NCBI GenBank assembly: GCA_035279385.1
Contig: DATEHZ010000061.1
Span: 4,310-68,309, forward strand
DNA: 64,000 bases
Direction of reading: 5' to 3'
From: Vulcanimicrobiaceae bacterium
Lineage (GTDB): Bacteria > Vulcanimicrobiota > Vulcanimicrobiia > Vulcanimicrobiales > Vulcanimicrobiaceae
The position numbers and the translations under genes are program-made. The notes below the pieces were generated by a model. The model worked only from the letters and a program-made list of their open reading frames with translations. It was not told where the DNA came from and made no database searches. Numbering within the stretch: the stretch's first letter is position 1; each line of letters opens with the position of its first letter. Shown here in pieces: positions 37,416 through 58,494 of the stretch.

Positions 37416-37531
37416 GAACCAAGACCTAATGTTACCACACCGCGCAAGCCCCCCCTGCCGAACTTGTCTGGGCTAGAAGTCAGGCCGCCTGCCGCCCGAT
37501 GCGCCTCGGACGCGGCCGCGGCGATTTTCGG

Positions 37532-37822
37532 TTAGATCATCGCAATGTATTTTTTAAGGGCGGCATCGTCTTCTTTGAGCTGCTCGAGCATCATGTCGCG
37601 CAGCACGTTTGCTTCGCGCTCCAGCTCCGAACGCTCTTCCATTTCTTCATCGAATTGCGACTGCTGCGCCGTAACGGCATCGCTCTTCGGCGTCTTGGCA
37701 GCGCGCGTCGTCCCACGCGCTGCCACGGCTGCACGATCGATCACTCGGTGATCGACTCGATGAACTTCTTGGTGATTTGATTGTCGGCTTTGCGCTGCCA
37801 CAAAGCAAGGCAGGATAACCAC
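37532..37822 (-). CDS. Small hypothetical protein (start uncertain; possibly GTG at 37744)
   Basis: The C-terminal 60-70 aa are clean and helical (..EEMEERSELEREANVLRDMMLEQLKEDDAALKKYIAMI). The N-terminal third looks non-coding. Confidence 0.4.
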   Translation of the reverse strand: MVILPCFVAAQSRQSNHQEVHRVDHRVIDRAAVAARGTTRAAKTPKSDAVTAQQSQFDEEMEERSELEREANVLRDMMLEQLKEDDAALKKYIAMI

Positions 37823-37847
37823 AACATTATCGGTAACTTGCTCAACA

Positions 37848-39266
37848 ATGGCCGATAAATGTTGGCTTTACCTCGTTGTATCATCCGAAGCGCAGGAAGA
37901 CACGCTGGACGCGCAACGACGATGGGGGTTCGAGGAGGCCGCCCGTATCGGTGTGCGCGTTGATCCGGACGGCGTCTTTGAAGGAGTCGCCTCCGGCAAG
38001 CACGGCGCCCGAACGATCTTACTCGACCTGATCGCGAGGTTGCGCGCGCTCCCGAAGTCTGAGCGCCCGGCGCGTGTGCTGATGAATCGCCTGGACCGGA
38101 CGGGTCGCATGCCGCTAGACGCGATTTCTGCGCTGAACGACATTCGCAAACTCGGAGTCACAATCCGCGATCGGATTAACGGTGATTATACGTTTCAGCG
38201 CGTGATCGACCAAGTTGGGCCTATCTTCCAGCTGCTGCAGGCAGGGTTCGAAAACGAAGTTCGTTCCGATCGGTCGAGAGCCGGCCACAAACGCCGTCGC
38301 GACGAGGGAAAATTGATTCCGAGTAAACCGCCGTACGGCGTGAAGCGTGATGAACGCGGCAAAGCGATTCCGGATCCGAAATGCGCACGCGTTGTTCGAA
38401 AAGTCTTTGAGCGTTGGGCTGACGGCGATTCGCCTGCGGCGATCCTGCGATGGCTGCGCGAAAAGGCTCCGCCGCGCATCGGTCGCGGTGGCAAAGAGTA
38501 CCACATTCGGTGGAGCCTGTCCCATGTCTACAAAATGGTCGTGCTGGGCACTTACCGCGGCGTGGTAATCGACGAAGATCTCTGGCAGCGCGCTCAAAGT
38601 AGAAAGCGCAAGTACAGCCGTCCCGGGCCAGGCGGATACGTTTATCCATTTTCTGGCATTAAATGCACGTGCGGGCACACGCTGCGGGCCCGAACGAACG
38701 TATCGGCGTCACGCTATCGCCGAAGGGACGGCTCGGAAGTCATCTACACCCGCAGTCCAATCGTGTGGTACGTCTGCGGATCGCTGAAGCACGACGGCGT
38801 GAGGTATCTCTCTTTTCGTGAGGAGCGCATCGAAGAGCAGTGGCTAAAGATGCTGCGAATACTTTCATTGAAAAATGCTCCGTGGCCGACTTCGCAGCGT
38901 GCAACGAACCTGGGTCCGCGCATTGAAATGCTGACGCGCAGGCTCGATGTGCTCTTGGCACGACGTGATCGCGTCCATGCGGCTTTTGAAGATGGTACCT
39001 ACGATACGAAAACTATGCAGCGCCGACTCGCGGCCATCGACGAAGAGGAACGCAAACTGGAGGCCGACATCGCGGCGATACAGGCGCAGTATGAACGTGA
39101 ACGACAACGGCTCATTGATCGCGATCGCGCCGTGGCGTTGATAAAAAACGCTGCGAAGACGTACGCGAAGGCCACTCGCGAGGAACGTGCCCGGCTAAAC
39201 GCGGCTCTGTTCGCAGCGCTCGGACATCCCGTCATCACTGACGCATATCGCTTGACGCTGCCCTAA
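37848..39266 (+). CDS. Large serine recombinase (integrase)
   Basis: Resolvase catalytic domain (YLVVSSEAQ..LDRTGR), recombinase domain, Cys-rich zinc ribbon, C-terminal coiled coil. 472 aa. Confidence 0.85.
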   Translation: MADKCWLYLVVSSEAQEDTLDAQRRWGFEEAARIGVRVDPDGVFEGVASGKHGARTILLDLIARLRALPKSERPARVLMNRLDRTGRMPLDAISALNDIRKLGVTIRDRINGDYTFQRVIDQVGPIFQLLQAGFENEVRSDRSRAGHKRRRDEGKLIPSKPPYGVKRDERGKAIPDPKCARVVRKVFERWADGDSPAAILRWLREKAPPRIGRGGKEYHIRWSLSHVYKMVVLGTYRGVVIDEDLWQRAQSRKRKYSRPGPGGYVYPFSGIKCTCGHTLRARTNVSASRYRRRDGSEVIYTRSPIVWYVCGSLKHDGVRYLSFREERIEEQWLKMLRILSLKNAPWPTSQRATNLGPRIEMLTRRLDVLLARRDRVHAAFEDGTYDTKTMQRRLAAIDEEERKLEADIAAIQAQYERERQRLIDRDRAVALIKNAAKTYAKATREERARLNAALFAALGHPVITDAYRLTLP

Positions 39267-39275
39267 AGAGCAGAT

Positions 39276-39683
39276 TTAGAGGCTACGCTCCTCCGTCACG
39301 TTGATTGCGCGACCGTTGAGCGGTAAGTCCGATGCGGCGATGTACACGTTAAAGCGCTTGAAATACTGGAAGAATTCGCGGATTCCAATTTCAAAATGGA
39401 TGGCGCGGACCGGCGCCGGGTGGTGTGTGTTAAGAAAGTCTTTGGCTTGCTCATAGTTCGCGACCGGGATGACGTAGGCCGTGACTGACGCTGACGTTAC
39501 CGGTTCATCGAAGCGGCCGTTCTCGCCGTTGAACATACTGATTCCGATCAGAGACTCATCGTCTCGCAGGGCCCGCTTGTCGCGAAGATAGCGCTCGATC
39601 GATGGCAGCGGATGGTCGATGTTATCCGCTTCGACGGACCCTACCCACTCGCCGTACTGCACGCTGGCAACGAATTTCTTCAT
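39276..39683 (-). CDS. Hypothetical protein
   Basis: 135-aa ORF with lower GC, convergent with the recombinase. No family recognised. Confidence 0.5.
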   Translation of the reverse strand: MKKFVASVQYGEWVGSVEADNIDHPLPSIERYLRDKRALRDDESLIGISMFNGENGRFDEPVTSASVTAYVIPVANYEQAKDFLNTHHPAPVRAIHFEIGIREFFQYFKRFNVYIAASDLPLNGRAINVTEERSL

Positions 39684-39814
39684 GGTGCGGCCGTTATGCG
39701 GTTGGGTAAGCCGATTCCCGCCTCCATCGCGCGAAGCCGGATTCGGCGTAAGAATAGCGCTTTTCTAAACGCGATGCGGACTACGGCATAAGTATTAAGG
39801 TTTCGCGATTATCA

Positions 39815-39899
39815 AACGTATGTTTCATGCAGCGAAGGATCGAACGTATGTATCAGAGAGAATTTCGTTTGTTTAGCCAATCTATTGCGACAACGTATG
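39815..39899. promoter_or_regulatory. Three direct repeats AACGTATG(T/C) in the divergent control region
   Basis: AACGTATGTTTCA (39815), AACGTATGTATCA (39843) and AACGTATGCTCGA (39892) inside a 380-nt AT-richer intergenic region. Confidence 0.35.
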
Positions 39900-40063
39900 C
39901 TCGACAGCAAGCCGCCTGCGGATGTCATCGAACTTCCCGTGAGTCCCGAAACCACCAGGGTCGTACAGATCCTCGATGAGATCGAGCGTCGTTGTGCCGC
40001 GGAATCGTGCAATACACCAGAGGCTGCGTGACTGACGGCAACGCTGCCCAGCGGGAATCCCGA

Positions 40064-40813
40064 ATGGGCAATTACCGTGAGGTCGAGGTCACCGAGACAC
40101 CAGCAGCGCGCGCCGCTCGCCTCTCGAAGACCGCTGAAAATGTTGCGCCCATCAATGAAGAGATCGGAGTTGATGCGCGCCTAATCCAAGAACGAGGCGG
40201 CGCCGACCCGGAGGAGCGTGCCGACGAATCCGCGACGCAAGCGATGCGCGGTCCGACGCGCGGTAAAGGGGGAAGATCTCGCACCGGTCGACATCCTAAG
40301 CAGAAAAGAGGAACATGGACCTGCCCGGCATGCCACGTTGAATACTGCACGCATCGTCCGGTTGATGCGGGCAGGCCCTCAATCTATGACGAGCCGATGG
40401 CTCCAAATCCGTTCAAACCACGCATATTTAAGACGGAGGCGGAGTACTTTCGCTCTTCGGTAGACGTGACACTACTGTTGCGCGACGTTGTCAACATCAT
40501 GCGCGCTTACTTCGAACGCAACGGGATCGATCCCATTAAAGAGTTGCGTGAACGCGCACTGGAGCATTACCGCGGCGGCGGTCCAGCAACGATTGACGTG
40601 GAAATGCGCGTGGAAATTGCCGAGCGATGGCCCAAAGCGCTGCTCGAATGGTGGCGCAGCACGCGCACCGCGATCGGCGTCAATGATGCTGTGTTGTGCC
40701 GGGAACTAGTCGCAGATTTTTCGTGGCTGGCGCTCACGGATCCCGCGGTTTCAGAGCGCGCGCTTCGCGCCCTGGAGGATGCGGCGGAGAAGTTGCGTCG
40801 GATTACTGCTTGA
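40064..40813 (+). CDS. Hypothetical protein with CxxC..C..H knuckle
   Basis: Internal ATG chosen (MGNYREVEV..). WTCPACHVEYCTH. No family recognised. Confidence 0.5.
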   Translation: MGNYREVEVTETPAARAARLSKTAENVAPINEEIGVDARLIQERGGADPEERADESATQAMRGPTRGKGGRSRTGRHPKQKRGTWTCPACHVEYCTHRPVDAGRPSIYDEPMAPNPFKPRIFKTEAEYFRSSVDVTLLLRDVVNIMRAYFERNGIDPIKELRERALEHYRGGGPATIDVEMRVEIAERWPKALLEWWRSTRTAIGVNDAVLCRELVADFSWLALTDPAVSERALRALEDAAEKLRRITA

Positions 40814-41156: not shown

Positions 41157-41996
41157 ATGGTATCAGAAGACGACGCGTCACGCAACATCGCGGAGCGCGA
41201 CGAACGAAGGTGGTACGAAAAATCCCAAGCGGCGCTTCCCATTCTCGCCGGTTTACCAGCCTGCGCGTACGCTGTGTTTTATTGCATCCTCGGCCACGTT
41301 AAACCGGGCACCAACACGTGGTCAATGTCATACGCCGAGGTTGAGCGTGAGACGAAGATATCGCGAAGCAGCGTTGTTCGAGGCGTGCGTGAGCTCCGGC
41401 AGTCCATGCTTCTGCACACGGCTCAGCAGAAGCGTGAGCGCACCATTTTCACCTTGCATATTCCCGAACCGGTGTCAGGATTGACTGGTGTCGGGGTTGA
41501 GCATGATTACGGTGTCAGTGTTGAGCACGGTTCCGGTGTCAGGGTTGACGCATCACTGGTGTCAGCGCACGAAGAGCCTCCCAGCACACCCGATCCCAAT
41601 TCCCAACACGTCCCAGCAGCAGCCGCGCGCGTAAGTGAATCGGACCTAAAAGAAGCGTGGTCCAAGGAATCACCTTCGGCATATCCGGGCGTACGCACGT
41701 GGTCCGCATTCGTCGCGAAGAAAATTGAAAAAGGCGAAATGCCGGCGAAACGTTCAAATGACTCCCACGCAGTTTTATCGGGCACATGTGAGTGTTGCGG
41801 TAACCGAAAAACGGGGCGGCGCGTAGAGCCGTCGTTCGAGGATCTGATGCAGAGAGGCGACGTACTGCCCTGTGATCGGCCGTTCTTTTGCTTCGGCTGC
41901 TTAGAATTGTCGCAGCACGAACGGGACCGCCTGACACGCGAAAGGCGCGAGAAAGAGCAACAATGCGAATGGCAGACGGAGGACTATGCGGCATGA
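41157..41996 (+). CDS. Winged-helix DNA-binding, replication-initiator-like protein (uncertain)
   Basis: ISRSSVVRGVRELRQSMLL resembles the wHTH of phage/plasmid Rep/O-type proteins. Iteron-like repeats lie inside the gene. C-terminal Cys cluster. Confidence 0.45.
   Translation: MVSEDDASRNIAERDERRWYEKSQAALPILAGLPACAYAVFYCILGHVKPGTNTWSMSYAEVERETKISRSSVVRGVRELRQSMLLHTAQQKRERTIFTLHIPEPVSGLTGVGVEHDYGVSVEHGSGVRVDASLVSAHEEPPSTPDPNSQHVPAAAARVSESDLKEAWSKESPSAYPGVRTWSAFVAKKIEKGEMPAKRSNDSHAVLSGTCECCGNRKTGRRVEPSFEDLMQRGDVLPCDRPFFCFGCLELSQHERDRLTRERREKEQQCEWQTEDYAA
41471..41565 (+). repeat. Five iteron-like direct repeats GGTGTCRGKGTTGAS
   Basis: Copies start at 41471, 41487, 41511, 41535 and 41558 (the last is partial). 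Confidence 0.6.
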
Positions 41997-42181: not shown

Positions 42182-42705
42182 GCACTCCAATAGCCCCAAA
42201 TGGCGGAAAAACGGCAGTTCGTTTTCGCGGCTCACGCGCAGAAAAGCCCGATGATACGGACGATCCCGAGGGTTCGTTTTTCCAAAACGACCGCGGGCAC
42301 CATAACGAGAAGTCCAGAACCCGTGCCGATGTGGCGCTCACGTCCGCTGAAGCGGTCTCAATGCTTGCGGGTGAAGTTGGCTTCGACGCGGAGATGGCCA
42401 AGCTGCAAGAGATGATGCGCCAGTCGACGCGCAAAATGCTCGATGAGGCGCGTTCAACGCGCGCGAAAACCGATGTGCTGACGTACTGTTTGGCGCTTCG
42501 TACCGCACTTGCGTTCGGCCAGGGCTTCTGTGCTCGCGAACTCGATGAGGACGAGACAGAGCGGATACATGAGCGATTAACGCTGAGGGCGGCGCGTGCC
42601 GTGCTGGCCAACGTCGAAAAGGCGGTTGAGCGCCAGATGTGGTTCACCGCGTACGATGCCTTGAACGCGTTTTTGATATCGGCGCTATCGTCTGGAGGGC
42701 GATGA
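42178..42705 (+). CDS. Hypothetical protein
   Basis: ATGA overlap with the upstream stop. 175 aa. Confidence 0.5.
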   Translation: MSTPIAPNGGKTAVRFRGSRAEKPDDTDDPEGSFFQNDRGHHNEKSRTRADVALTSAEAVSMLAGEVGFDAEMAKLQEMMRQSTRKMLDEARSTRAKTDVLTYCLALRTALAFGQGFCARELDEDETERIHERLTLRAARAVLANVEKAVERQMWFTAYDALNAFLISALSSGGR

Positions 42706-43607
42706 TGGGCGAGGTTATTGCGCTCGGCGAGCGCTGTCGAGGCGGACCGCGAACGGACGCTGGTAAGCGCCGATCCAGCCGCAACGCGATGAAGACCGGG
42801 GTGTTCGCTGAGGCCATCGTCATTCGTGGCGTCGAATCGCAAGACGCGTTTGATACCTTGGTCAAGTCCGTCGTCGGTTTTCATGACATCGAAGATCCCG
42901 TGACGCTGCTCGCTGCTGAAAGGTTTATTGCGATCGCATGGCGCCTGCGCCGCGTGCGTCGTATTGAAACTGAGAAACTGACGGAAAAGGGCCGGCAGTA
43001 CGTGGCCGCCTCTGAGGATTTGCAAGCACGACATCGATTTCTTGAAATACTCAATGGTTACCGGCGAGCCGTCTCGGACGTCTCATCGGTCGGTACACTG
43101 GAAATCGAAACGATCGACAATGCTGTCAACGGCGTGCAGTACGTCCTGCATTACGTTCTCGGGCTAATCGACTGGAAAGCGAACTGCGTTGAAGGACAAG
43201 TTTGCTTCGAGGCGCCCCGGCTAGAGCGTATCTTAGATCGCGGGAAGCGGGTCCGCGGGAAAACCGCCCGTGCGGCTTTTGACGATGCGCGCCTGCTCCT
43301 CCCCGACGTGTTCGACAAGCAGAAAAATGTCGAAGAATTCCTGTGGAGGATGTACCGCGCACTCGATGAGATAGTCGACGCGCAGCGCTCAGAAATAGAC
43401 GAACACGAACGCAAAGCTCTTCGCGCGTTCGTCGATGCGATGGAACTTGACTGGCAGGACGAGCGGTCGCTAAGCAACGCAGAGCGACGCCTGGACGCGC
43501 AATTCAGTCGCGCGCTGGCAGACTTTCACGCCGCCCGCCGAGCCGTCGCCGAAGACGCGGCTGATGTGCATGCGAAACGACGCGGCGCTCAGGTGGCGAA
43601 TCAGTAA
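42702..43607 (+). CDS. Hypothetical protein
   Basis: ATGA overlap with the upstream stop. 301 aa, helical. Confidence 0.5.
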   Translation: MMGEVIALGERCRGGPRTDAGKRRSSRNAMKTGVFAEAIVIRGVESQDAFDTLVKSVVGFHDIEDPVTLLAAERFIAIAWRLRRVRRIETEKLTEKGRQYVAASEDLQARHRFLEILNGYRRAVSDVSSVGTLEIETIDNAVNGVQYVLHYVLGLIDWKANCVEGQVCFEAPRLERILDRGKRVRGKTARAAFDDARLLLPDVFDKQKNVEEFLWRMYRALDEIVDAQRSEIDEHERKALRAFVDAMELDWQDERSLSNAERRLDAQFSRALADFHAARRAVAEDAADVHAKRRGAQVANQ

Positions 43608-45903: not shown

Positions 45904-46122
45904 ATGATAAAAATCGTTTTTGCGGCAGCCTCCCTGCTTTCTGTCCTTATCACCGGGGCCGACCGCTGCGCGCCGGGCTCTTCCGCTAAGCCAGGCATAG
46001 TTTGCGTGGTCGGCGCTCTAAAAAAAGGCGGCGATATTCGAAATGTGTACGCTTCCGATGGTGCGCAACTGATCGTAGAGCAAACTGATGCTGCGTGCAT
46101 TCGGGATACGCACGCCAAATGA
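45904..46122 (+). CDS. Small secreted protein
   Basis: Internal ATG after GAAGGA. Signal-like MIKIVFAAASLLSVLITGA. Confidence 0.45.
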   Translation: MIKIVFAAASLLSVLITGADRCAPGSSAKPGIVCVVGALKKGGDIRNVYASDGAQLIVEQTDAACIRDTHAK

Positions 46123-46955
46123 GAAATGCAATTTTACGCGTCGCACTGGCAATTGCTGCTTTCGCGCTGCTTGGTGCATTCGCGAGCAATCAGCTGATGT
46201 CTAGAAACGACGTTTATGCTCAGATCGGCACCGCGTTCTCGTGGGCCGGCACGGCGCAAGCGTCATGGAACGGCGATCACACCATGGTGAACTGCTCCGA
46301 CTTCTTCACGTACATTAAGTCGGACGGTTCCAGTTGCACGACGTTGTACGGAACGAACGGCGCTCATCAGATCATGAATTGGTCGCAGATGCAGCAGCAC
46401 GCGGTCAACTCTACACCGGTTTCGCATACCCCGATCTTGTCGAACAATACCTTTGCCGGGGCCGTCTTCAGCCCGTGGACCGCCGACGGGTCGGCAACCT
46501 GTTCCGCGAACTTCGCCGCCTCGACGACCGATCAGGAAGGCACCGACGGCGGCAGTGCGACGGGCAATTCAAGCAACGGAACGTGCACCATTGGGATGAG
46601 CCAGACGTTCAACGTTACCGCTGCTCCGACGAGCCAATCGCTTTCGTTTTACTATGAGACTCCCAATGTATCCGCCGGCGACGGAATCAACTGCACGGCG
46701 GGAACGGGATCGGCAACAATCACGATCAAGCTCAACGGTACGACGATCTCTACCATTACCAACCCCACCTACGATTCGTCCTGGCACCCGGTGAGCACGC
46801 CCATCAGCGCCATGGTATCTGGAAGCAACACGCTGGATATTACGGTATCGCTCACGGCCGCTTCCGGAACGACCGGAAGCCCAGCGTGCACTACACATCA
46901 ATACGCCCAACAACACGTGTACATCGACAACGTTCAATTAACCGCGACGTACTAG
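46119..46955 (+). CDS. Secreted Ser/Thr/Asn-rich protein
   Basis: ATGA overlap. Signal peptide MRNAILRVALAIAAFALLGAFA. About 11 N-x-S/T sequons. Confidence 0.55.
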   Translation: MRNAILRVALAIAAFALLGAFASNQLMSRNDVYAQIGTAFSWAGTAQASWNGDHTMVNCSDFFTYIKSDGSSCTTLYGTNGAHQIMNWSQMQQHAVNSTPVSHTPILSNNTFAGAVFSPWTADGSATCSANFAASTTDQEGTDGGSATGNSSNGTCTIGMSQTFNVTAAPTSQSLSFYYETPNVSAGDGINCTAGTGSATITIKLNGTTISTITNPTYDSSWHPVSTPISAMVSGSNTLDITVSLTAASGTTGSPACTTHQYAQQHVYIDNVQLTATY

Positions 46956-48550: not shown

Positions 48551-50935
48551 ATGGCTGGTACCGATCCATATAGACTCTGGGTTGAATTTCGGGTCAAGGA
48601 TTACACGTCCGAGAACCTGGCCAACATCAGCAAATCCGTCCGCGCGACGAAAGAGCAAACCGCGGCCCTCAAAAAAGAGCTCGCCGGTATCCGCGCGCAG
48701 TCAATGATCCCGACGTCGGCTCTTCAAGCACGGCAGCAGATGCTGCGGATTGCTCGAGAGGAAGCCGTCGTCGGCGAGCGGCTCGCAACGACCTCCACCC
48801 GTAAGGAGCGGCAAGCGCTCTCGACGCGTCTGCAAGCTCTGCGGATCGCGCAGCGAGACATGTCGGTCACGCGTCAGACGCTGGCGTTCAAGGAACAGCA
48901 AGGGGCGGCGGAAGAGAAAGTCGCTGCCGCGAACGCGCAAGTCCTCGCCGTGGCGAGGGACCTCTCCGAAATCCGCGCGCGCGGACTCGGTCAGGCGACG
49001 GATCTCACCGAACTGCGCCGCGAGCAGCTGGAACTCGCCCGAGAAGAAGCGGCGATCCGCGAGCAACTCGCGACGACGGTCGATCTCGCCGAACGCGCAG
49101 CGCTGCAAAGCCGATTGGAAGCCGTGGGTCTGGCGGAGCGGGAGCTGCAGATCCGCCGGCAGACGCTGGGCGTCGACAAGGCCGATCGCAAAGCCCGTCT
49201 TGAAGCCTTAGCGCAGGTCGGTCACGGCGTGAATCACGTCGGCACCAATCTGATGTTCACCGGCGGCGGTATCTTCGCAGGTCTGGCCTATGCCACGCAA
49301 AAGGCGATGGTGTTCGACCAAACGGCGCTGGAAACGGACATGGCGCTCGGCGGGTACACCCGTTCCGCGGCGCAGCGGCAGTCCGACATTCGCGCGCTTC
49401 AAAAAGCGGCGATGATCGGCTCCGAGGCGACGGGATTCTTCAGCGCCCAGGACATTCTCGAAGGCTTGAAGATGGCCGCGAGCTCCGGTTCGCGTCCGCT
49501 CGTCGAGAAGATGGGCATGGGGGTCTTCACGCAGATCGCTCCCTCGCTCAGCCAGTTCATGGACGTGCTCGGCCGGCTCAAGGGCGAGTCCGCCGGGCAA
49601 GCCGCGAAGGAAGCGATTCAGACCGCGCACATGTTCGGCGCCTACAAGCCGGCCGATATCGCGCGCGTGCTGAACGCGCAGGCCGCGCTCACGCTGTTGA
49701 TGCCGGACAAAATGTCCACCGCGGTCAATACGCTTGCGTACGCCGCTCCGGCGGGCGTGCAGCTCGCTGGGATCCCGCAAGAAGCCATCCTCGCGCTCTT
49801 GGCGACGGCAGACCAATCCGGTCTGGGTCACGGCCGCGCCGGCGCGCGCCTGAAAAACTACATCGAAGCGGTCGCTCTGCACCAATCAGCGCCACGGGAG
49901 CGCGCGAAGGCCGCGCTGGGTATCCACAACGCCGTCAATCCGGACGGCAGCGTCGACCTGATGCGTTCGTTCGAGATCCTCATGGCGGATCGCAAACGCA
50001 TGGGTGCACAGGCATTCCGCGATGCGGCCACTACTGCATTTGGTCAGCAAGGCGTCATCGTCGCCGCGATGTTCGGCGACGAGAGCAAGCAGAGCATGTT
50101 CAACGCCAATCGCGCGGTTATCGAACAGGCGATCCAGCACGGCGATCTGAGCACGATCCAAAACCTGATGAAGGGCACGGCGCTTGGAAAAGAAGCGCAG
50201 GCCATGGCTCGTCTGAACAACGACCTCATCGAATTCGGCCGCTCTGGGATTCCGATCGCGACGAAGTTCTTCGACACGATCAACCCGAAGCTCAAACAGT
50301 TCGGTGACTGGATGCAAGCGCATCCGAAAGCCACGGATCGCCTCTTCAACGACCTGGTTGACGTTGGTGGCGGAATGCTTGCGTTCGGAGCGGCCTTCAA
50401 GGTATTCGGAACCGCACTGGCCGTACCGCTGGGCATCTTCAAGACGCTGCAGGCGCTGAAGATGGCGAAGGATCTGGGCACGATCGCGAAGGCGGTAAAG
50501 ACGCTGGGGCTCGTGGAATCCGCAGCGGCGCCCGAGGCGGAAGCCCTGGCCGGCATCGGCACCATCAGCGCGGGAACGGTCGCGGCGGTGACCGGTGCTG
50601 TCGCTGCCGTCGCCGGTCTGCTCTACGGCGTCGTCTACGATGAGAAGCACCCGACGCCATCATTCACGGGTCTTGGCCCCGCTGCGGACGCGACGGCGGC
50701 AAACTACGGTTTGCTCGGAACGCAAACGGCATACACTCCTCTCGGTCCCGGCAAGACGACAGCCGATCTTTCCGCGCTCAAAGCGAAAGTCGAATTCGAA
50801 CTGCCAAAAAATATGCCGCGCGGCACGCGCGTGACGGTTCACGCGCACCTGCAAAGCATCATGGGCACGAATCCGCGGTCAGTCGCGCTACCGAAGCCGG
50901 TGACGGTCGGCGGGATGTCCTTCGGGACGCCTTAA
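48551..50935 (+). CDS. Phage tail tape-measure-like protein (TP901-type core)
   Basis: N-terminal repeated coiled coil. Core ..AAMIGSEATGFFSAQDILEGLKMAASSG.. and ..GLGHGRAGARLKNY... Gly/Ala-rich hydrophobic C-terminal part. 794 aa. Confidence 0.7.
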   Translation: MAGTDPYRLWVEFRVKDYTSENLANISKSVRATKEQTAALKKELAGIRAQSMIPTSALQARQQMLRIAREEAVVGERLATTSTRKERQALSTRLQALRIAQRDMSVTRQTLAFKEQQGAAEEKVAAANAQVLAVARDLSEIRARGLGQATDLTELRREQLELAREEAAIREQLATTVDLAERAALQSRLEAVGLAERELQIRRQTLGVDKADRKARLEALAQVGHGVNHVGTNLMFTGGGIFAGLAYATQKAMVFDQTALETDMALGGYTRSAAQRQSDIRALQKAAMIGSEATGFFSAQDILEGLKMAASSGSRPLVEKMGMGVFTQIAPSLSQFMDVLGRLKGESAGQAAKEAIQTAHMFGAYKPADIARVLNAQAALTLLMPDKMSTAVNTLAYAAPAGVQLAGIPQEAILALLATADQSGLGHGRAGARLKNYIEAVALHQSAPRERAKAALGIHNAVNPDGSVDLMRSFEILMADRKRMGAQAFRDAATTAFGQQGVIVAAMFGDESKQSMFNANRAVIEQAIQHGDLSTIQNLMKGTALGKEAQAMARLNNDLIEFGRSGIPIATKFFDTINPKLKQFGDWMQAHPKATDRLFNDLVDVGGGMLAFGAAFKVFGTALAVPLGIFKTLQALKMAKDLGTIAKAVKTLGLVESAAAPEAEALAGIGTISAGTVAAVTGAVAAVAGLLYGVVYDEKHPTPSFTGLGPAADATAANYGLLGTQTAYTPLGPGKTTADLSALKAKVEFELPKNMPRGTRVTVHAHLQSIMGTNPRSVALPKPVTVGGMSFGTP

Positions 50936-51375
50936 TGCTGCCACGGCAACGCGCCGCACTTCGAAAGAAGAACCAGCACAATAACTAGCAGCGCAATCCA
51001 CAATAGCGCATAGATGACCTGCAAGGCGGCCTGCACGATGAGTGCGAGGTCGAGCAGCAATCCGCCGAGGCCGGCGAACAGCATGCGCCACGCTTGTCGC
51101 TTAGATAGTCTCGCCTGAGGCGGCGTCGTAATCACAGGCGCCCTGCGCGGTTCGAAAGCTGTGGGTTCCGGGTCGTGGATGCGAGCGCAAAACGGCGCGC
51201 TTTCATCCTCGGCTGCGCGGTTGGAGCGTGCGGCAAATTCGGACTCGATGTCCCAGGTATTGGGATCGGTATCACGGTCGGTTTCGGCTTGGTCCGCATC
51301 CTCGTCGTCTTCGTTATCGACGAACGGGGCGGCCCAGCCGCTGACCCCGCGCTTGCGGTTCATAGCTGAAAGCAT
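50932..51375 (-). CDS. Acidic protein with a C-terminal TM anchor, hypothetical
   Basis: 147 aa. D/E-rich N-terminus and a hydrophobic C-terminus. Confidence 0.4.
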   Translation of the reverse strand: MLSAMNRKRGVSGWAAPFVDNEDDEDADQAETDRDTDPNTWDIESEFAARSNRAAEDESAPFCARIHDPEPTAFEPRRAPVITTPPQARLSKRQAWRMLFAGLGGLLLDLALIVQAALQVIYALLWIALLVIVLVLLSKCGALPWQH

Positions 51376-51401
51376 AGTTCAGCCGAGTAGATGCCACACT
51401 G

Positions 51402-51422
51402 CCGATAACCGCAAATTATCGA
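51402..51422. promoter_or_regulatory. Palindrome CCGATAA-N7-TTATCGA (operator-like)
   Basis: Lies in the divergent intergenic region between 51375 (-) and 51627 (+). Confidence 0.45.
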
Positions 51423-51626
51423 GCGCCTCAATTCGCGGGTGCGGCAAAGGTTAATATTCTGTGATTTTCACCACGACCGACGGCGACGCAGTCATCAGCG
51501 GAGGAGGACGTACGGCTTTGGGGCGGAAGCGCGCTTCATGTCCGCTGCGCATAGAGGTGGGGCGCTTCCCCTTTTTTCCGAAACCCGGGCTTCGTCGTGC
51601 TCGTTATCGGGTAAGGAGATAGCAGA

Positions 51627-51887
51627 GTGACCATTATGTACGCACCGAGCCGGCGGGCCTTCAACCGTGACCGTCGTCCGGACAGCCCGCAGAAGATCGT
51701 CAACGATGCGGTGCGCAGCCTCCACGTGCGCTGCCTTGGCGTTGATGGAACACTTCTCATTTTTCAGCGCACAAACCGAGCTTCGCACGATCTCAACGCT
51801 CTAACGCAACAGATCGCCCAGCGGCTTCTTCAGAACGAAGATCTGCGTGAAGCGCTGAGCGGGATTACCGGCATAAGATTGCTGTAG
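51627..51887 (+). CDS. Hypothetical protein
   Basis: GTG start 9 nt after AAGGAG. 86 aa. Confidence 0.45.
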   Translation: MTIMYAPSRRAFNRDRRPDSPQKIVNDAVRSLHVRCLGVDGTLLIFQRTNRASHDLNALTQQIAQRLLQNEDLREALSGITGIRLL

Positions 51888-51912
51888 GCCGGCGCTGCGC
51901 GCCGTCGGGTGG

Positions 51913-52695
51913 GTGTGGTTCCTCGCGCTGGGGATTCCGGCCGTCGCTATCGGATTTGTGTCATGGCTATATGTCCACCAATGGTTGGCGCTTGCACATG
52001 GCTCAAGCGTAATACAGTGCGCGTTCGGCAATCCAGTTTGTAGCGTTGCGGTAGCGACATGGGCCTTGGTGCTGTTCACGATTTTTGCGTTTGCCGCTGC
52101 GGCGTCTGCGGCGATTTTCGCGAAGTGGGCGTTCAATAACGAGATCGAGCCGAGGCTAGGCGAGGATGCCTGCACGAATCGCCGTTGCACGCGACGCGAT
52201 CGCGTCTGGTACCTTTCTTCGGACATCGAATTTCTGCCTAAACGTCCGCTGGGCAGCACAGAGAAGCAGTATCGAAAAGTGCATCACGCTTTTACGAACC
52301 TAGGGCGCAACGCCCTGGGGAACGTCGTGGTCAAGGTCTGTTTTCTGGATAAGGACGGCTTTCCGTCCCCCGAATTTGACATGCCACTTGGAAACCTCGG
52401 TGTAGCGGACCTGCACCGCGAACGGCACGTCGAAATTCGTATCCACGAGGATCTTTACGACGATGGCGACGTCTTCATTCGATTTAATTCGGCGTCAGCC
52501 GACGGCAAAAAGATCAAGGCGTTCTTGAAGGTCGATCCCGAAGTGCCAACGGCGCAGAATCTGTTCATCCTGCCAAACTCCCAGCTATCCATGGGAGAGC
52601 TAATGCGCGAAGTGCGCCGAACCGAATTGAAACCTGGTCGTTCGAATCGCCGACGCGAAGCCGAGGCCGGACACGTGCAGGAAGACGACGAGTGA
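51913..52695 (+). CDS. Membrane protein with a cytoplasmic C-terminal domain, hypothetical
   Basis: 2-3 N-terminal TMs followed by a soluble domain of about 170 aa. Confidence 0.5.
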   Translation: MWFLALGIPAVAIGFVSWLYVHQWLALAHGSSVIQCAFGNPVCSVAVATWALVLFTIFAFAAAASAAIFAKWAFNNEIEPRLGEDACTNRRCTRRDRVWYLSSDIEFLPKRPLGSTEKQYRKVHHAFTNLGRNALGNVVVKVCFLDKDGFPSPEFDMPLGNLGVADLHRERHVEIRIHEDLYDDGDVFIRFNSASADGKKIKAFLKVDPEVPTAQNLFILPNSQLSMGELMREVRRTELKPGRSNRRREAEAGHVQEDDE

Positions 52696-52718
52696 TGCTC
52701 TTCCGCGATTAGCTGGCG

Positions 52719-52932
52719 CTATCGCGTCTCAAGTCGTCCGGTCACTCTGACTTTATCCCAGCGAAACGTCAAACACTGGACTTCACCGGGCGGGAACGCA
52801 CCGTCTCGGATCGTTACGGTGCCCGCTGCCATTGCCGACGAATCGCGCCGTCGCCGCCGCGTGGTGGATCTAACGCACTGTAGTCAATACTTGCGCCACG
52901 CGGCGAGATCCGCCGATCGCAAAGGCGGTCAT
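52719..52932 (-). pseudogene. Frameshifted paralog of the 68-aa gene at 54353..54559
   Basis: MTAFAIGGSRRV.. stops after 20 codons. Another frame continues ..GTVTIRDGAFPPGEVQCLTFRWDKVRV, matching ..TVTIETVCFPPGEFQRLTFRCDDVTL. Confidence 0.45.
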
Positions 52933-52948
52933 GCTCCTAGAAATTCCA

Positions 52949-53368
52949 TCATTCGCCGGACGGTTGAACATCTGGATCGAGGCGCAGCCAATCACCCTGT
53001 AATAAAATTGCTGCCGGACCGTGGTTTTCGTTCAACGATCCAAGCATGGCCGCCACATGCATATCGTGTATGTCGCGCAGCTGTGGCGCGTACTTCTTCG
53101 GACCACTAAATGACATTTCGAACACGGCCCATTCGTCAGTGCCGGGAAGGGGCCACACCGCGGTTCGTTCATGGAACTTGCGCAAATGCGCCAGTGGAAC
53201 GCTTTCGGTGTCGAGATAAACTTGTTTGTCCCTGCTCCGCCGCAATCGCTGCGCGAGATCGGCCGATTCCGGGTGAAGGCGGAAGCGAATTGCAGACCGG
53301 TACGTGATGCGGTCGTTTGCAAGCGTGATTTGCGGGTCAAGACTTGGTTTACTGTTCATCTCATTCAC
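52949..53368 (-). CDS. Hypothetical protein
   Basis: 139-aa ORF. No family recognised. Confidence 0.45.
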   Translation of the reverse strand: MNEMNSKPSLDPQITLANDRITYRSAIRFRLHPESADLAQRLRRSRDKQVYLDTESVPLAHLRKFHERTAVWPLPGTDEWAVFEMSFSGPKKYAPQLRDIHDMHVAAMLGSLNENHGPAAILLQGDWLRLDPDVQPSGE

Positions 53369-53405
53369 CGCGCCTTTGCCGTGCGCGCCATGCGTCGGCG
53401 CGTCA

Positions 53406-53780
53406 TTAGACGTCCGGCTTTTCTACGAATAGGTGACCGTTCGCGTCCACGTTGATCCGCGCGTAAACACGCTTTGATGCTGCCGCGATAACCTGGGGAA
53501 GACCGCGGTGCGCGTCCAGGCGCTGTAGCTCAAAGTCGCCATCGTCCGCACCAAGGCGGTGGATGGCCAGATCGCTCGCGAAAACCTGCACCGCCTCTGT
53601 CCCGAATCCCTCATCTGCGCGCGTGTTTAATCCCCGAACGGGCTCAACGTCAAATTTCGTTCCGCGGACGCTCCGCTCGACGTACGCCTTAAACCGTTGC
53701 TCACCGCGCTCCATTTGCGGGCCGCCCGACGTGCTTCCCATAGTGAGGCGTACGGCGCCACAGCCTTCAACGTCCTGCAA
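53406..53780 (-). CDS. Hypothetical protein (start uncertain)
   Basis: 124-aa ORF. No family recognised. Confidence 0.4.
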   Translation of the reverse strand: MQDVEGCGAVRLTMGSTSGGPQMERGEQRFKAYVERSVRGTKFDVEPVRGLNTRADEGFGTEAVQVFASDLAIHRLGADDGDFELQRLDAHRGLPQVIAAASKRVYARINVDANGHLFVEKPDV

Positions 53781-53802
53781 AGCTGGCGATAAGCGGCTGT
53801 TA

Positions 53803-54219
53803 TCAGTAGGTAACGTACGCGTCCCCCGGCGGTAAATCGAGGCAGTCTAGTAGAAGGCTCGCGAGCGTTTCGAGCGCTGCTCGAAGATCCTTTGCGTTGT
53901 TCTGGAGCCAACACCATTTTTGGTTTTTCGTCGCGCGTTCTATCTGGGTCGCGTATCGCATGATTTGTGTCGCCCCGACGCAGCGGGCACCCTCGCGAAG
54001 CTTATCGCACAGATAGAGCACCGAGGTCCAATCGCGATCCGCGATCGCGCCCGCTATGCGCGCCGAGGTTTGCGTTGCATCGGGCAACCAGATTTTGCGA
54101 ACGAATTCGAACGCTGCGTCGACATCGCAATCGAAGAATTCGGCGACTCGTGCCAGGTCATCGGGATTGAGGCACATCGCCTCCAAATCCGCATCGCGCA
54201 TCACGTCCACCCTTTCCAT
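53803..54219 (-). CDS. Four-helix, HPt-like protein lacking the phospho-accepting His (speculative)
   Basis: WTSVLYLCDKLREGARCVGATQIMRYATQIE resembles the HPt pattern ..H.LKGSA..LGA..L...LE with His replaced. Confidence 0.35.
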   Translation of the reverse strand: MERVDVMRDADLEAMCLNPDDLARVAEFFDCDVDAAFEFVRKIWLPDATQTSARIAGAIADRDWTSVLYLCDKLREGARCVGATQIMRYATQIERATKNQKWCWLQNNAKDLRAALETLASLLLDCLDLPPGDAYVTY

Positions 54220-54352
54220 GACGACGCGCCGCTGGCTAAAGGCCGACGCCGCGCATATCGGTGTGCCCCCTTGCTTTATAGGACTATCGGCCCATAGTTG
54301 GGGACGAGAAACGTCGCAGTTCTTTGTAAAGAGCGCGCAAAGCGAATGCGGG

Positions 54353-54559
54353 TTACGCCCGGGATTTAGTGAGCGTTACATCGTCGCACCGGAACGTCAG
54401 ACGCTGAAATTCGCCCGGCGGGAAGCACACCGTCTCTATGGTCACGGTATTGCGTGTCATCGCTACAACGGTGCCGTCACCGCCGCGTTGCGGGTCCATC
54501 TGGCTATACTCGCGCTTGCGCCACGAGACACGATCGCCAATTTTAAATTCGGTCATCAT
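54353..54559 (-). CDS. Small (68 aa) hypothetical protein, intact copy of the duplicated gene
   Basis: MMTEFKIGDRVSWRK...; paralogous remnant at 52719..52932. Confidence 0.5.
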   Translation of the reverse strand: MMTEFKIGDRVSWRKREYSQMDPQRGGDGTVVAMTRNTVTIETVCFPPGEFQRLTFRCDDVTLTKSRA

Positions 54560-54797
54560 GTTGCGCCTATAACACGGCGGCCCGCGTGCGGTCAAACGCC
54601 GGCGGGCTAATCGCATAAAAAACAGGAAGGCCCGCTGAAAGCGAGCCTCTCTGTCGTCGCGTACGCGGTTCCCCGCGTACCGGGTGTGGGCGACGATTGA
54701 GCGCGATTCGGCCAACATCAAGATTGACCTTCGCTAGTCCCGAAGGTGCGCTACATGTGAATCTCTTCGGTTGTGTTCCGCGCCGAATTGCTCGCCA

Positions 54798-55320: not shown

Positions 55321-55418
55321 GATGAAGACCCTTTCGTTATGGCGCGGTCGGGCGGTCGTGGCTGCGATCGCTCGACCTTCAGTGATGTTCGGGTTCTCTG
55401 TTACGCTGGTGAAGTCGC

Positions 55419-56399: not shown

Positions 56400-56400
56400 G

Positions 56401-56649
56401 TTAGCGCACCTTCGCGCGCGGCGAAACCGCTTCGTGCTCAATCGAGCCGTTGGGGTGGAAGTGCGAGATACCCAGACTATCGCGCACGGTGATGGTGCCG
56501 TTCATCTTCGGCCGATCGGCATCGTATGCAGCGGCGAGTTCGTTGAAGAAGTCCCGCGCCTCATCGGCTGAGAGTTCGCGTCCGGCGAGCATGGGGTTCA
56601 CTTTCGAGAAACGTTCTTTGACGTAGGCGACGGCGTTAGGCGACGGCAT
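56401..56649 (-). CDS. Hypothetical protein
   Basis: 82 aa, tightly packed between neighbouring genes. Confidence 0.45.
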   Translation of the reverse strand: MPSPNAVAYVKERFSKVNPMLAGRELSADEARDFFNELAAAYDADRPKMNGTITVRDSLGISHFHPNGSIEHEAVSPRAKVR

Positions 56650-56651
56650 CG

Positions 56652-57179
56652 TTAGGCGACCTCCCGTGTCGCGATCGCTGCGCAGTAGTCGTGCGCGGCG
56701 CGGAAGAACGCGAACTCACCCGCAGCCGGCAGATCGATGCGGTCGACGCGCTCGTCGAAGCGATAGACGGCCATCGAGTCGCCGGAGCGCTCAAAGCGCA
56801 GATCTCCGATGACGAGCGTAAACACCTCGCGCGCCGGAGCGGGGCGCCTCGAAAGGCGCACAATGCCTGGACCGGTGATCGTGAAGACGTCGCAGCCGGG
56901 ATGCTTCGCGAGTTTCGAGCGTAGTACGCGGATAGCGCTCCACGCGTTGCTGTAGTCCGCGGCGAGCGCGCGCAGCGAATCGAGCGCCTTGGCGAGGTCA
57001 CCGCCGCTTACATGGTGCGCGTGGCGCAGAAGGCGCGTCGTGCTGAGGTGGTTGTTCTTGGGCGAGTGGATGGCCCAGCGGTTATCGGCGCTAGCGCGCT
57101 TCGGGGCCGTGTGCGATACTGGATGCGTCATCGGTGAGGTCCTTTCTCCCGGTGGCACGGCCTCGGCGGTCTCATTCAC
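56652..57179 (-). CDS. Hypothetical protein
   Basis: 175 aa. No family recognised. Confidence 0.45.
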   Translation of the reverse strand: MNETAEAVPPGERTSPMTHPVSHTAPKRASADNRWAIHSPKNNHLSTTRLLRHAHHVSGGDLAKALDSLRALAADYSNAWSAIRVLRSKLAKHPGCDVFTITGPGIVRLSRRPAPAREVFTLVIGDLRFERSGDSMAVYRFDERVDRIDLPAAGEFAFFRAAHDYCAAIATREVA

Positions 57180-57210
57180 TGCCGGGGCCTCTTGCTTTGT
57201 GGTTATCAGT

Positions 57211-57471
57211 CTAGCAGTTATGCTGCGCCATCTGCACGTCGCGCAGCGTATTGACTTCGCGCATTTGCTCCGACTTCTCGTCCATCATCTCGTCGAACGC
57301 TTGCGACTGCAGTTGCATCTGTTCCTGATGATGGATTTGCTGCGCGTACATGCCGAGTTGAAAGAGCTCGTCGCCGTTGTTCATGCCGTTCAGCGCGAGG
57401 TTCGATCCGATGTTCGTCGCGCCGCTGAGCAGCGTCGAGCCGATGCTCAGTAAGGTCGGAAGATATGACAT
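57211..57471 (-). CDS. Small protein: Gly/Ser/Leu-rich N-terminus and Gln/Glu-rich helical C-terminus
   Basis: ATG 7 nt after AAAGGAG. MSYLPTLLSIGSTLLSGATNIGSNLALNG.. 86 aa. Confidence 0.5.
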   Translation of the reverse strand: MSYLPTLLSIGSTLLSGATNIGSNLALNGMNNGDELFQLGMYAQQIHHQEQMQLQSQAFDEMMDEKSEQMREVNTLRDVQMAQHNC

Positions 57472-57484
57472 GGTGAGCGCTCCT

Positions 57485-57763
57485 TTATGCGGCGATGGAT
57501 TCCGGATCGACGAGCGATGCAAAATCCGCATGCGCTTTCGCGAACGACGAGAGCGCGTTGACGTTGTGCTGCTCGAGCGGGTTTTCCGCAGCGAGCTGTG
57601 CGAGAAGCGGCGACTGCGCCGATGCGCCGGCGTTCGACGCGCCGCTATCGGAAAAGCACGTTATGGCTCCGGCGCCGGCCGCGATAACGGGGTTGCCGGT
57701 TTCCGCCAGCGTTTCCAGGCCCGTCGTGATGCCTTTCACGATGCCTCCAAGACTCAAGTGCAT
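57485..57763 (-). CDS. Small Gly/Ala/Ser-rich protein
   Basis: ATG 8 nt after AAAGGAG. MHLSLGGIVKGITTGLETLAETGNPVIAAGAGA.. 92 aa. Confidence 0.5.
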   Translation of the reverse strand: MHLSLGGIVKGITTGLETLAETGNPVIAAGAGAITCFSDSGASNAGASAQSPLLAQLAAENPLEQHNVNALSSFAKAHADFASLVDPESIAA

Positions 57764-57812
57764 GGCAATTGCTCCTTTGAAAGATGTCGCTGCACTATCA
57801 CGCGCGGCAACG

Positions 57813-58451
57813 TTAGCTGCTAGAGTCCTCGCCCGAAAAGATGATGGAGCCGAAGTCGACGGCGCAGTCCTGCGGCCGGTGGTGCGTCGACTGCGGCGCC
57901 GGCGGCGGCTGCATCGAGGCAAAAGAGAAGAGCGCGTTGACGCTGCGCCGTTCGCTCGGGCTTTCCGCGGATGCATCCTCGGTAAGGGCTTGCTGCGTCG
58001 TGCAGGCGAGATTCGCGTAGTGCCGCAGCACGGAATCCGCGTAGCCCAGGCGCGCGCCGTCCGTCCATTGCGTGACGGTGCCCGTTGCACGCGGGCTGCC
58101 TGCGTTGTACGCCGAGAGCGCTTCGTGCACGTCGCCGCCGTACCGCTTGAGCAAACCCGCGATCATGCCGGCAGCATAGTCGGCATTCGCCCGCGGCTGC
58201 ATCGCCGCCGCGCTGTTTGCAAATGCGTGAAAGCGATCGTCGATTTGAAAGACGCCGTGCCCGTGACCGCCGTCGCCCACGATGTTGCGTCCCGCGTTGC
58301 TTCCGGGGCCGCCCGTCTCTTGCGCCGCAACCGCTGCAAGCAGTCGCGGATCGAGTCCGTACTTAGCGGCAGCCGCGGCAATGTCGGGCGCAAATGCGAC
58401 GCCCGCTTGCGAGAGCGCGCGAGCGCTCTGCGTGATGCTCGAGATACTCAT
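57813..58451 (-). CDS. Lytic transglycosylase (SLT domain)
   Basis: LLAAVAAQETGG (catalytic Glu), GVFQID and AYNAG motifs. Confidence 0.8.
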   Translation of the reverse strand: MSISSITQSARALSQAGVAFAPDIAAAAAKYGLDPRLLAAVAAQETGGPGSNAGRNIVGDGGHGHGVFQIDDRFHAFANSAAAMQPRANADYAAGMIAGLLKRYGGDVHEALSAYNAGSPRATGTVTQWTDGARLGYADSVLRHYANLACTTQQALTEDASAESPSERRSVNALFSFASMQPPPAPQSTHHRPQDCAVDFGSIIFSGEDSSS

Positions 58452-58494
58452 GCGTACCCATCACGCCGGACGCCGCGAGCGGCAACGGCGTAGC

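Follow-up and report, generated by a model that had tools for sequence, protein, structure and literature searches.

Within a 64,000-nucleotide stretch of a Vulcanimicrobiaceae genome (contig DATEHZ010000061.1, positions 4,310 to 68,309; hereafter the window, or W, whose numbering is used throughout), positions 37,799-57,221 are occupied by a 19,423-bp mobile element which, as comparison with an empty site in a relative demonstrates, was inserted into a small host gene by large-serine-recombinase chemistry at a 5-bp core. The element is mosaic and phage-related and has no recognizable virion or conjugation machinery, as an earlier note on this DNA had proposed, apart from an intact gene for a tail tape-measure protein (TMP). 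We read it, at even odds, as a non-autonomous, phage-derived integrative element of a satellite-like kind; a plain defective prophage is nearly as likely. Labels of the form L0xx denote compared loci (contigs) and those of the form P00xx homologous proteins.

The limits come from an empty site in a relative, L051, together with excision in silico. The earlier note had set them at 37416-58494, with tRNA-Ile and the lipoprotein region as borders, and had recommended comparison with sister genomes to define the attachment sites attL and attR; that comparison, made through L051, instead places both borders inside a small host gene, as a serine-recombinase attL/attR pair with the core GCTGC bounding the element at both ends. 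On the opposite strand the core reads GCAGC in a three-way alignment of the empty attB of L051 with attL and attR of the window. In L051 the intact gene is followed by the small gene sm70, tRNA-Ile, two tRNA-Ala genes and the left-flank genes of the window, and BLASTN matches its positions 5-94 to window 57318-57229 and its positions 98-158 to window 37797-37737, with nothing between. The features at the two junctions are as follows (asterisks mark stop codons).

37741..37797, minus strand: displaced 3' end of the target gene, encoding QRKADNQITKKFIESITE*, conserved at the protein level in W, L047 and L049
37794..37798: attL crossover core GCTGC (L051/attL/attR alignment; BLASTN breakpoint)
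37798..37822: attP arm on the element side of attL, CCACAAAGCAAG ... GATAACCAC, with inverted copies at 57191-57207
57191..57207: attP arm on the element side of attR, CTTGCTTTGTGG / GTGGTTATC
57211..57471, minus strand: sm86, which represents the target gene's 5' part in the host, its last three codons element-derived (HNC*)
57222..57226: attR crossover core GCTGC (L051/attL/attR alignment, BLASTN, in-silico excision)

The target is a 100-aa host gene on the minus strand, entered within its 3' end, in the last 17 codons. The peptide encoded by 37741..37797 recurs unchanged at the C-terminus of P0036, the gene that stands uninterrupted in L051, and P0036 itself (49 aa, from the homology search) fuses the C-terminal motif of sm86 to the 3' remnant. 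Joining 57226 to 37798 in silico restores a 100-aa open reading frame (ORF) ending ...DVQMAQRKADNQITKKFIESITE*, as in L051/P0036, which is how precise excision would restore the target gene. The predicted junction sequences are ...GTCGGCTTTGCGCTGCGCCATCTGCACG... for attB and ...AGCAGTTATGCTGCCACAAAGCAAGG... for attP; the arms of the reconstructed attP form imperfect inverted pairs, CTTGCTTTGTGG/CCACAAAGCAAG and GTGGTTATC/GATAACCAC, of 12 bp and 9 bp. A search for attR by inverted-arm similarity and the motif TTTRCGCTG returned noise only. A right border at 54.63 kb, suggested by breaks in Logan contigs and by a length similar to that of the related element L030, was discarded because the empty site L051 places attR at 57,222. 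Base composition sets the element apart as well, at 59.9% G+C against 63.0% in the rest of the window.

The recombinase that accounts for these junctions lies directly inside attL.

37848..39266, plus strand: large serine recombinase (integrase), 472 aa (Pfam Resolvase PF00239 2.7e-11, Recombinase PF07508 6e-5; phrog_95 4e-34)

The phrog_95 match covers residues ~1-450. Active sites of this type combine a catalytic Ser with conserved Arg residues (R8, R68 and R71 in gamma-delta numbering); here the Ser and a D-R-x-x-R motif are present, the Arg two residues ahead of the catalytic Ser is replaced by Val (VVSS, not R-V-S-T), and the motif W-x-Y-L-V-V-S-S-x-x-Q recurs in eight distinct proteins, that of the window and seven homologues (P0025-P0031). 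Homologues are 52-68% identical, and genomic context was followed for two of them (67%, L049/L050; 52%, L047/L048). In both, the recombinase stands at a prophage end beside the same tRNA-Ile and sm70 as in the window, and the window, L047 and L049 all carry the coding remnant QRK[AE]DN..TKKFI.SI.E*. L046 (free) and L047 (integrated) are one phage, identical as far as ...CAGCGTAAA and divergent beyond, and this divergence point locates the crossover and shows the recombinase subfamily to be active. The integration site is shared with related temperate phages from the same host clade. No recombination directionality factor was identified in the element.

Large-serine-recombinase prophages inside protein-coding genes are familiar from SPbeta in spsM and the skin element in sigK, and from phiC31/Bxb1-type integrases. 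The present element shares with them the Resolvase and Recombinase domains, a very short core without long direct repeats, imperfect inverted attP arms, and insertion into a gene that precise excision could restore; it differs in that the TMP is its sole virion gene and in the Val at the conserved Arg position of its integrase. Should the window's copy be no more than a defective prophage, the comparison still supplies an exact attB/attP pair for a divergent, evidently active serine-integrase subfamily without a supposedly essential Arg.

Searches of the element against Pfam, PHROGs and NCBIfam found no terminase, portal, capsid, sheath, tube or baseplate family. Only the two recombinases and the TMP exceed 310 aa, and only the serine recombinase and the TMP are large enough for a terminase or portal. 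The all-alpha make-up of the 300-aa protein and the N-terminal segments of the 278-, 308- and 260-aa proteins, described below, likewise speak against hidden virion genes. There are no homologues in the element of the tube, putative sheath or baseplate genes of L044, an IMG/VR contig that represents a real tailed phage. Megablast of the region against phage and plasmid collections gave no related record, tblastx for degraded remnants of structural genes gave compositional noise only, PADLOC found no defence genes among the ten family-less ORFs scanned, and PDB sequence searches with a 158-aa protein family of the related elements and with the element's 216-aa protein returned nothing useful. 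Within the reach of these tools a complete head-tail module can be excluded, and the element alone would presumably be unable to build particles. No hidden head-tail module, then, was found, and the site is not occupied in all relatives, L051 being empty, which bears out the earlier note on both counts.

The same three databases likewise held no match in the element to a relaxase, a coupling protein, VirB4/VirD4, an FtsK/TraB-like ATPase or a type IV secretion system, and these negatives argue against an integrative plasmid-like or conjugatively mobilized element, whether an integrative and conjugative element (ICE), an integrative and mobilizable element (IME) or an actinomycete ICE (AICE). 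A candidate initiator gene with iterons and the presence of two recombinases would fit such an element, and a distant homologue of its tyrosine recombinase (L037) lies beside genes that we read as relaxase-like and as type IV coupling protein-like; the recognizable genes, however, are of phage type (phrog_95, phrog_9210, phrog_28) and the integrase belongs to a family of phages, so that we consider this origin very improbable. Among the explanations offered earlier, the integrated plasmid-like replicon thus found no support, while the decayed prophage and the phage satellite both remain.

The TMP gene is the one virion gene that the element keeps.

48551..50935, plus strand: tail tape-measure protein, 794 aa, full length (phrog_28 1e-15; no Pfam match)

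The protein matches nothing in Pfam, nor in the PDB when searched with the TMP profile, and tblastn against phages was empty. It has 23 homologues, most of them nameless; those with a source name come from Candidatus Baltobacteraceae/Cybelea. The TMP of L044 is 46% identical and lies between frameshifted G/GT chaperones and baseplate genes: upstream are a major head protein (phrog_1357), a putative sheath, a tube-like gene, a 107-aa chaperone and a 162-aa tail-completion-like gene, and downstream a baseplate wedge (phrog_6) and fibre-like genes. The window's TMP keeps 105 of 105 family-invariant residues and shows two private deviations (family range 0-8). By these comparisons the 794-aa TMP is demonstrably genuine, intact and of myophage type. 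IMG/VR scans with the 279-, 300- and 216-aa proteins of the element and with the TMP alignment found nothing besides L044.

Five of the six TMP contexts examined are compact elements, two of which, of 14.7 and 19.4 kb, are delimited. The four sisters of the window's element, none with capsid, portal, sheath or tube genes, are laid out as follows (numbers joined by hyphens are protein lengths in amino acids).

L030: large serine recombinase, helix-turn-helix (HTH) protein, Prim-Pol, chaperone-58-158-TMP, 242-aa serine recombinase; found in 16 contigs, ~18 kb by gene content, no right-hand border mapped
L052 (3467-18211): tyrosine integrase, HTH_17, a 280-aa protein homologous to the window's 300-aa protein, chaperone-55-160-TMP, two tail-region genes like those of L044, 254-aa resolvase; 54-nt tRNA-Asn repeats at its ends, spaced 14,691 bp, no terminase
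L029/L034: D5 primase, RusA, TerL, chaperone-158-TMP, and a tyrosine recombinase abutting the sm86 orthologue by SLT-yceD; left ends unseen
L027: AAA_25, TerL, scaffold, chaperone-157-TMP, insertion sequence, 187-aa resolvase; no right-hand border mapped

Several features of these sisters support function rather than decay. All five sister loci (four independent elements), like phage L044, have a conserved A-AAA-AAC -1 frameshift site within their chaperone gene; it stands in the correct phase ~30 nt before the chaperone stop, with the -1 frame open for ~185 nt more, in the classical gpG/gpGT arrangement. The sister tail block begins at the chaperone gene every time, and the adjacent tube gene of L044 is never included. 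Between L029 and L034 the ratio of nonsynonymous to synonymous substitution (dN/dS) is 0.10-0.24 for the primase, TerL, TMP and 158-aa genes, much as in host genes (0.08-0.18, with dS saturated). Small ORFs resembling ribosomal protein S21 were also seen in compact elements (L027 4068-4286; L033 2763-2960), that of L027 immediately upstream of the large terminase.

The window's element matches the sisters at 52-61% identity in the TMP, 36% in the 300-aa protein (L052), 31-37% in the serine recombinase (L030) and 61-64% in the tyrosine recombinase (L029/L034), and from this pattern it would be one of a family of compact elements in Eremiobacterota that carry a TMP. Within the family, serine and tyrosine integrases appear to be interchangeable, and so do the replication modules (Prim-Pol, D5 primase, AAA_25). 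Such a compact TMP-carrying lineage is probably maintained by selection and dependent on helpers, and the window's copy may be a minimal or partly degraded member, because the chaperone (G/GT) and tail-completion genes are missing.

How a satellite-like element of this design could operate can be envisioned from its genes. The integrase would excise the element, which would then replicate from its own origin; the internal Xer-like or, in sisters, resolvase-type recombinase could resolve multimers; head, tube, sheath and baseplate would come from a helper, a myophage related to L044; and the element would supply its own TMP. A bolder proposal is that the window's element together with L030, L052, L029/L034 and L027 forms a new family of satellites, in the uncultured phylum Eremiobacterota, that hijack tails rather than heads, each bringing its own TMP, usually with frameshifted chaperones and a tail-completion protein, around which the tube, sheath and baseplate of the helper would be assembled, with integrases swapped freely and a far-end second recombinase that resolves or switches the episome; this we hold to be doubtful, if worth stating.

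Several observations weigh against the satellite-like interpretation. Within the family, the window's copy has the fewest tail genes and lacks the G/GT chaperone and tail-completion genes that the sisters keep; what it has in common with them is limited to the TMP, the 300-aa protein and both recombinases. All sisters were found by a TMP search, which makes the constant presence of the TMP partly an ascertainment effect. Neither TerS nor a cos or pac site was found in the element, and no helper phage was identified. No excised, circular or empty forms and no direct sign of packaging were seen, the Logan contigs running unbroken through attL and attR in every sample; in the Logan assemblies of six further runs, the pieces are identical or at least 99.98% identical to the window. 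The integrase is without the otherwise conserved Arg before the catalytic Ser, although the whole active subfamily, including the L046/L047 member, is alike in this. Small ORFs of mixed orientation make a patchwork of the element's second half, which, with ~86% of the element coding, fits decay too, and the resolving role given to the second recombinase is purely our inference.

Much of this is what an ordinary defective (cryptic) prophage would look like, namely a temperate myophage that its serine recombinase integrated and that later lost its head, packaging, tube/sheath and baseplate genes by deletion and replacement, with TMP and tyrosine recombinase as leftovers and no further movement as a particle, and we rate that origin a serious contender at somewhat less than even chance. 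Full-size phages with related integrases occupy the same site; the TMP is the sole virion gene remaining, its partner chaperone genes gone; cargo-like genes for probable secreted proteins and lipoproteins and mixed small ORFs stand where structural modules would be expected; the att sites show no branching in four metagenomes; and the recovery of sisters through TMP homology may have flattered the family. Simple decay sits less easily with the intact att cores and attP arms, with an intact integrase and a TMP whose constraint is not relaxed, and with a G+C content still at the distance from the rest of the window given above. Nor would independent decay predict four independent sisters sharing the same reduced block, frameshift signal and purifying selection, or the clean bounds of L052 at 14.7 kb.

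Known mobile elements offer several partial parallels to the satellite-like reading. Chromosomal islands of the phage-inducible kind (PICIs), as well as P4, have their own replication modules with Prim-Pol/PriCT or D5_N primases. The window's element resembles them in its size range, the integrase at one end, a Cro/CI-type regulator and the want of a complete virion module; the sisters likewise have Prim-Pol/PriCT or D5_N primases, whereas the window's copy has only a weak winged helix-turn-helix (wHTH) and iterons. Unlike in PICIs and P4, neither TerS, capsid-size redirection nor Psu/Sid-like genes are recognized here; the family instead has tail-assembly genes (the TMP and, in sisters, also G/GT and tail-completion-like genes) and a second recombinase. 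The cryptic prophages e14 and Rac of Escherichia coli contain an integrase, scattered phage genes and cargo and produce no particles, and e14 has the Pin invertase. The element is like them in its integrase, phage remnants, cargo, extra site-specific recombinase and lack of own particles, but here both ends are intact and the TMP conserved, and sisters under purifying selection repeat the reduced layout.

A precedent is given by the EPIP satellites of Mycolicibacterium, described in a bioRxiv preprint of December 2025, which encode a TMP of their own along with a serine integrase and an HTH protein, and have no tail genes (PMC12822802). EPIPs are 11 kb long, also encode TerS, a head-tail adaptor, a stopper, a scaffold and a capsid, and were isolated as particles with altered tails; TMP is otherwise almost never known from satellites (PMC12822802). 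The window's element is likewise small and phage-derived, with serine integrase, HTH protein and TMP; it differs in its 19.4 kb, in being without the TerS, adaptor, stopper, scaffold and capsid genes, in having a tyrosine recombinase, and in being known from its genes alone. If it is helper-dependent, phage satellites would extend to a soil phylum without a cultured phage system, and TMP-carrying satellites would have a second independent case after the 2025 EPIP preprint, which would point to tail hijacking as a strategy of wider use.

The second recombinase deserves separate consideration, since the earlier note took two recombinases of different families as a sign of two elements, nested or composite. 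The right-hand part of the element reads as follows.

50932..54721: small ORFs in mixed orientation, namely 143 aa (minus), 86 (plus), 260 (plus), 136 (minus), 102 (minus), 138 (minus) and 68-122 (minus), with no family or defence match beyond a weak Pfam Hpt match in the 138-aa minus-strand ORF
54617..54648: 32-nt stretch with a terminator-like hairpin (minus strand), at the left edge of the tyrosine-recombinase segment
55419..56399, minus strand: Xer-like tyrosine recombinase, 326 aa, internal, 0.8 kb from attR (Phage_integrase PF00589 1e-13; SAM_1 PF02899 2.6e-5)
56401..57131, minus strand: two ORFs, of 82 aa and 159 aa, that separate the tyrosine recombinase from attR, no family match

The motifs LRRSE, HSLRAGF and SGYIR, read from the sequence, make up the R...H-x-x-R...Y catalytic set. 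Against the XerC/XerD equivalogs the protein scores ~55 bits, far under the cut-offs, and it is therefore not XerC or XerD itself; a metagenome scan found homologues in unrelated contexts. The identity of 61-64% noted above is to the recombinase that the L029/L034 elements carry at the corresponding end. As the junctions stand, the serine recombinase accounts for both of them and the tyrosine recombinase is internal, and the recurrence of a second recombinase at the right-hand end of every sister element seen, inside the att repeats in L052, points to a family trait rather than accidental nesting.

A composite origin, in which the right-hand 2.6 kb (54.65-57.22 kb, the tyrosine recombinase and four small ORFs) is nested in or fused to the serine-recombinase element, is a side hypothesis that excludes neither the satellite-like nor the defective-prophage account, and we think it unlikely. 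Part of the evidence for it lies at the left edge of the segment. In four samples, Logan contigs that approach from the left stop at 54646 and those from the right at 54619, so that four assemblies branch exactly at 54617-54648, which implies a 32-nt unitig common to some other sequence that diverges on both sides; G+C to the right of this edge is host-like, at 63.6% against 58.5% in the neighbouring part. Homologous tyrosine recombinases also lie at island borders in other contigs, and by a gene that we read as relaxase-like, and the corresponding recombinase of L029/L034 directly adjoins a junction within the target gene, ~11 codons upstream of the serine core. On the other side, no repeat or second att-like copy of the 32-mer occurs in the window, nor any copy in the other fetched loci; both outer junctions are of serine-recombinase type; and a right-end second recombinase also in L052, L030 and L027 suggests a built-in function. 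A look-up of the 68-aa ORF at the 54.63-kb break returned the source contig only.

In L029/L034 the target gene is disrupted ~11 codons upstream of the serine-recombinase core, reading ...DERSDKM and then unrelated sequence, and the disrupted sm86 orthologue (L029 17055-17441; L034 16129-16521) lies directly beside the tyrosine recombinase. Either a second recombinase family targets the gene or a deletion removed attR. The small host gene emerges as an integration hot spot that two recombinase families appear to target, and this would hold even if the window's copy is a defective prophage.

The remaining genes were mapped with a codon-usage model trained on the window and with the gene calls stored with public contigs, among them the 88.6-kb ENA contig ERZ27257066:k141_1299827, of which the window forms part. 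Both agree that several plus-strand ORFs (46.9-48.1 kb; 52.8-55.4 kb) are artefacts, Arg-rich and off-frame to genes on the minus strand, so that the earlier count of about 40 ORFs was too high and ~30 genes are left. The corrected map of the region stands even if the copy is only a defective prophage. Its left and middle parts, apart from the serine recombinase and the TMP, are as follows.

39276..39683, minus strand: 135-aa ORF, divergent from the early genes, with a good coding score and no family match
40064..40813, plus strand: 249-aa ORF with no significant BLAST match, its position matching that of the second gene of L030
40903..41097, plus strand: XRE/Cro-like HTH regulator, 64 aa (HTH_3 3e-13; many PHROG repressor/regulator families)
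41157..41996, plus strand: 279-aa possible replication initiator with a weak wHTH (MarR_2 and HTH_36 sub-threshold, E 0.07-0.16)
42705..43607, plus strand: 300-aa all-alpha protein, conserved in sister L052
44815..45465, plus strand: 216-aa phrog_9210 protein (4e-48) with a weak J-domain-like C-terminus (HPD; DnaJ E 0.065, sub-threshold)
46119..46955, plus strand: 278-aa Ser/Thr-rich protein with an N-terminal hydrophobic segment, no family match
47047..47973, minus strand: 308-aa protein with a lipobox-like N-terminus (LAGC), coding score 51.7
48134..48550, plus strand: 138-aa helical ORF abutting the TMP start

The early arm would comprise a Cro-like HTH regulator, a possible iteron-bearing initiator gene, a conserved all-alpha protein and a J-like protein. 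Matches in Pfam, PHROGs and NCBIfam confirmed the serine recombinase, XRE repressor, TMP and tyrosine recombinase named in the earlier note; two of its other assignments, and a third taken up with the flanks, survive in part. The internal iterons that it described in a replication-like wHTH gene correspond to a real 24-bp repeat (2.8 tandem copies at 41487-41553, within the 279-aa gene); the product is a possible replication initiator, and its wHTH is sub-threshold only. The supposed J-domain protein is present as the phrog_9210 protein, to which proteins from phages of Synechococcus, Caulobacter and Erythrobacter are homologous, some of them annotated 'molecular chaperone', while its J domain likewise stays below threshold. 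By eye, the 249-aa ORF and the second gene of L030 share a basic K/R...W-x-CPA stretch. The 300-aa protein, aligned with the 280-aa protein of L052 at E 6e-47, was modelled with AlphaFold2 (AF2) from a 30-sequence alignment as an all-helical coiled coil (pLDDT 88.5), without a fold match in the PDB, and its N-terminal domain of ~90 aa is widespread (1945 hits).

Further along, the 278-aa protein is probably secreted and the 308-aa protein probably a lipoprotein, both as cargo; N-terminal hydrophobic or lipobox-like segments, read from the sequences of the 278-, 308- and 260-aa proteins, suggest secretion, lipid anchoring or membrane insertion. For the 138-aa ORF just upstream of the TMP, hhalign gave a probability of <1% against the chaperone and tail-completion families, and a single-sequence AF2 model (pLDDT 54) was not used.

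The flanks of the element consist of host genes.

37339..37415, minus strand: tRNA-Ile(GAU), host flank and not the att site (ARAGORN, Rfam)
37532..37744, minus strand: sm70, a small host gene directly downstream of the target gene, with homologues flanking the L047 and L049 prophages and in L051
57485..59751, minus strand: sm92, SLT transglycosylase and GHL15 lipoprotein, host genes outside attR
57813-58451, minus strand: SLT transglycosylase (Pfam 3e-8)

The SLT gene, which the earlier note counted among the parts of the element, is real but lies outside attR; its top named match, the secretion-system transglycosylase IagB (E 2.6e-5), is far under the cut-off. In the host the operon order is SLT - sm92 - sm86 - sm70, adjoining tRNA-Ile, and tRNA-Ile likewise adjoins an sm70 homologue in L051 (the empty site), L047 and L049. 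SLT and sm86 orthologues adjoin yceD in L029/L034 at a host-like level of identity, and homologues of the flanking genes come from metagenome-assembled genomes (MAGs) of Candidatus Eremiobacterota/Baltobacteraceae; the host itself is an uncultured bacterium of soil, also of the Eremiobacterota. The motif Q-S-Q-x-F-D-E-x-M-x-E-x-S-E is common to sm86 and sm70 (E 2e-7). A GHL15-like lipoprotein gene (58495-59751) stands between SLT and yceD in the window's genome only: in L029/L034 SLT lies directly beside yceD, and GHL15 homologues, 65-74% identical, occur in other Eremiobacterota MAGs in unrelated neighbourhoods. A scan of the genome collection with this lipoprotein returned only paralogous or non-syntenic loci and no empty site.

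An Rfam scan of the window found tRNAs only. A YaaC-like gene and a 367-aa multi-pass-membrane-like gene (33864-36089) form a low-GC islet, with 53% G+C at 35-36 kb, beside two tRNA-Ala genes; L051 has a DUF5995 gene at the position of the YaaC-like islet, which marks a separate small variable island. The pair tRNA-Ile(GAU) and tRNA-Ala(UGC) usually sits in rRNA spacers. Here tRNA-Ile(GAU), tRNA-Ala(UGC) and tRNA-Ala(GGC) form a free-standing cluster (36247-37415), kept in three genomes (the window, L047 and L051).

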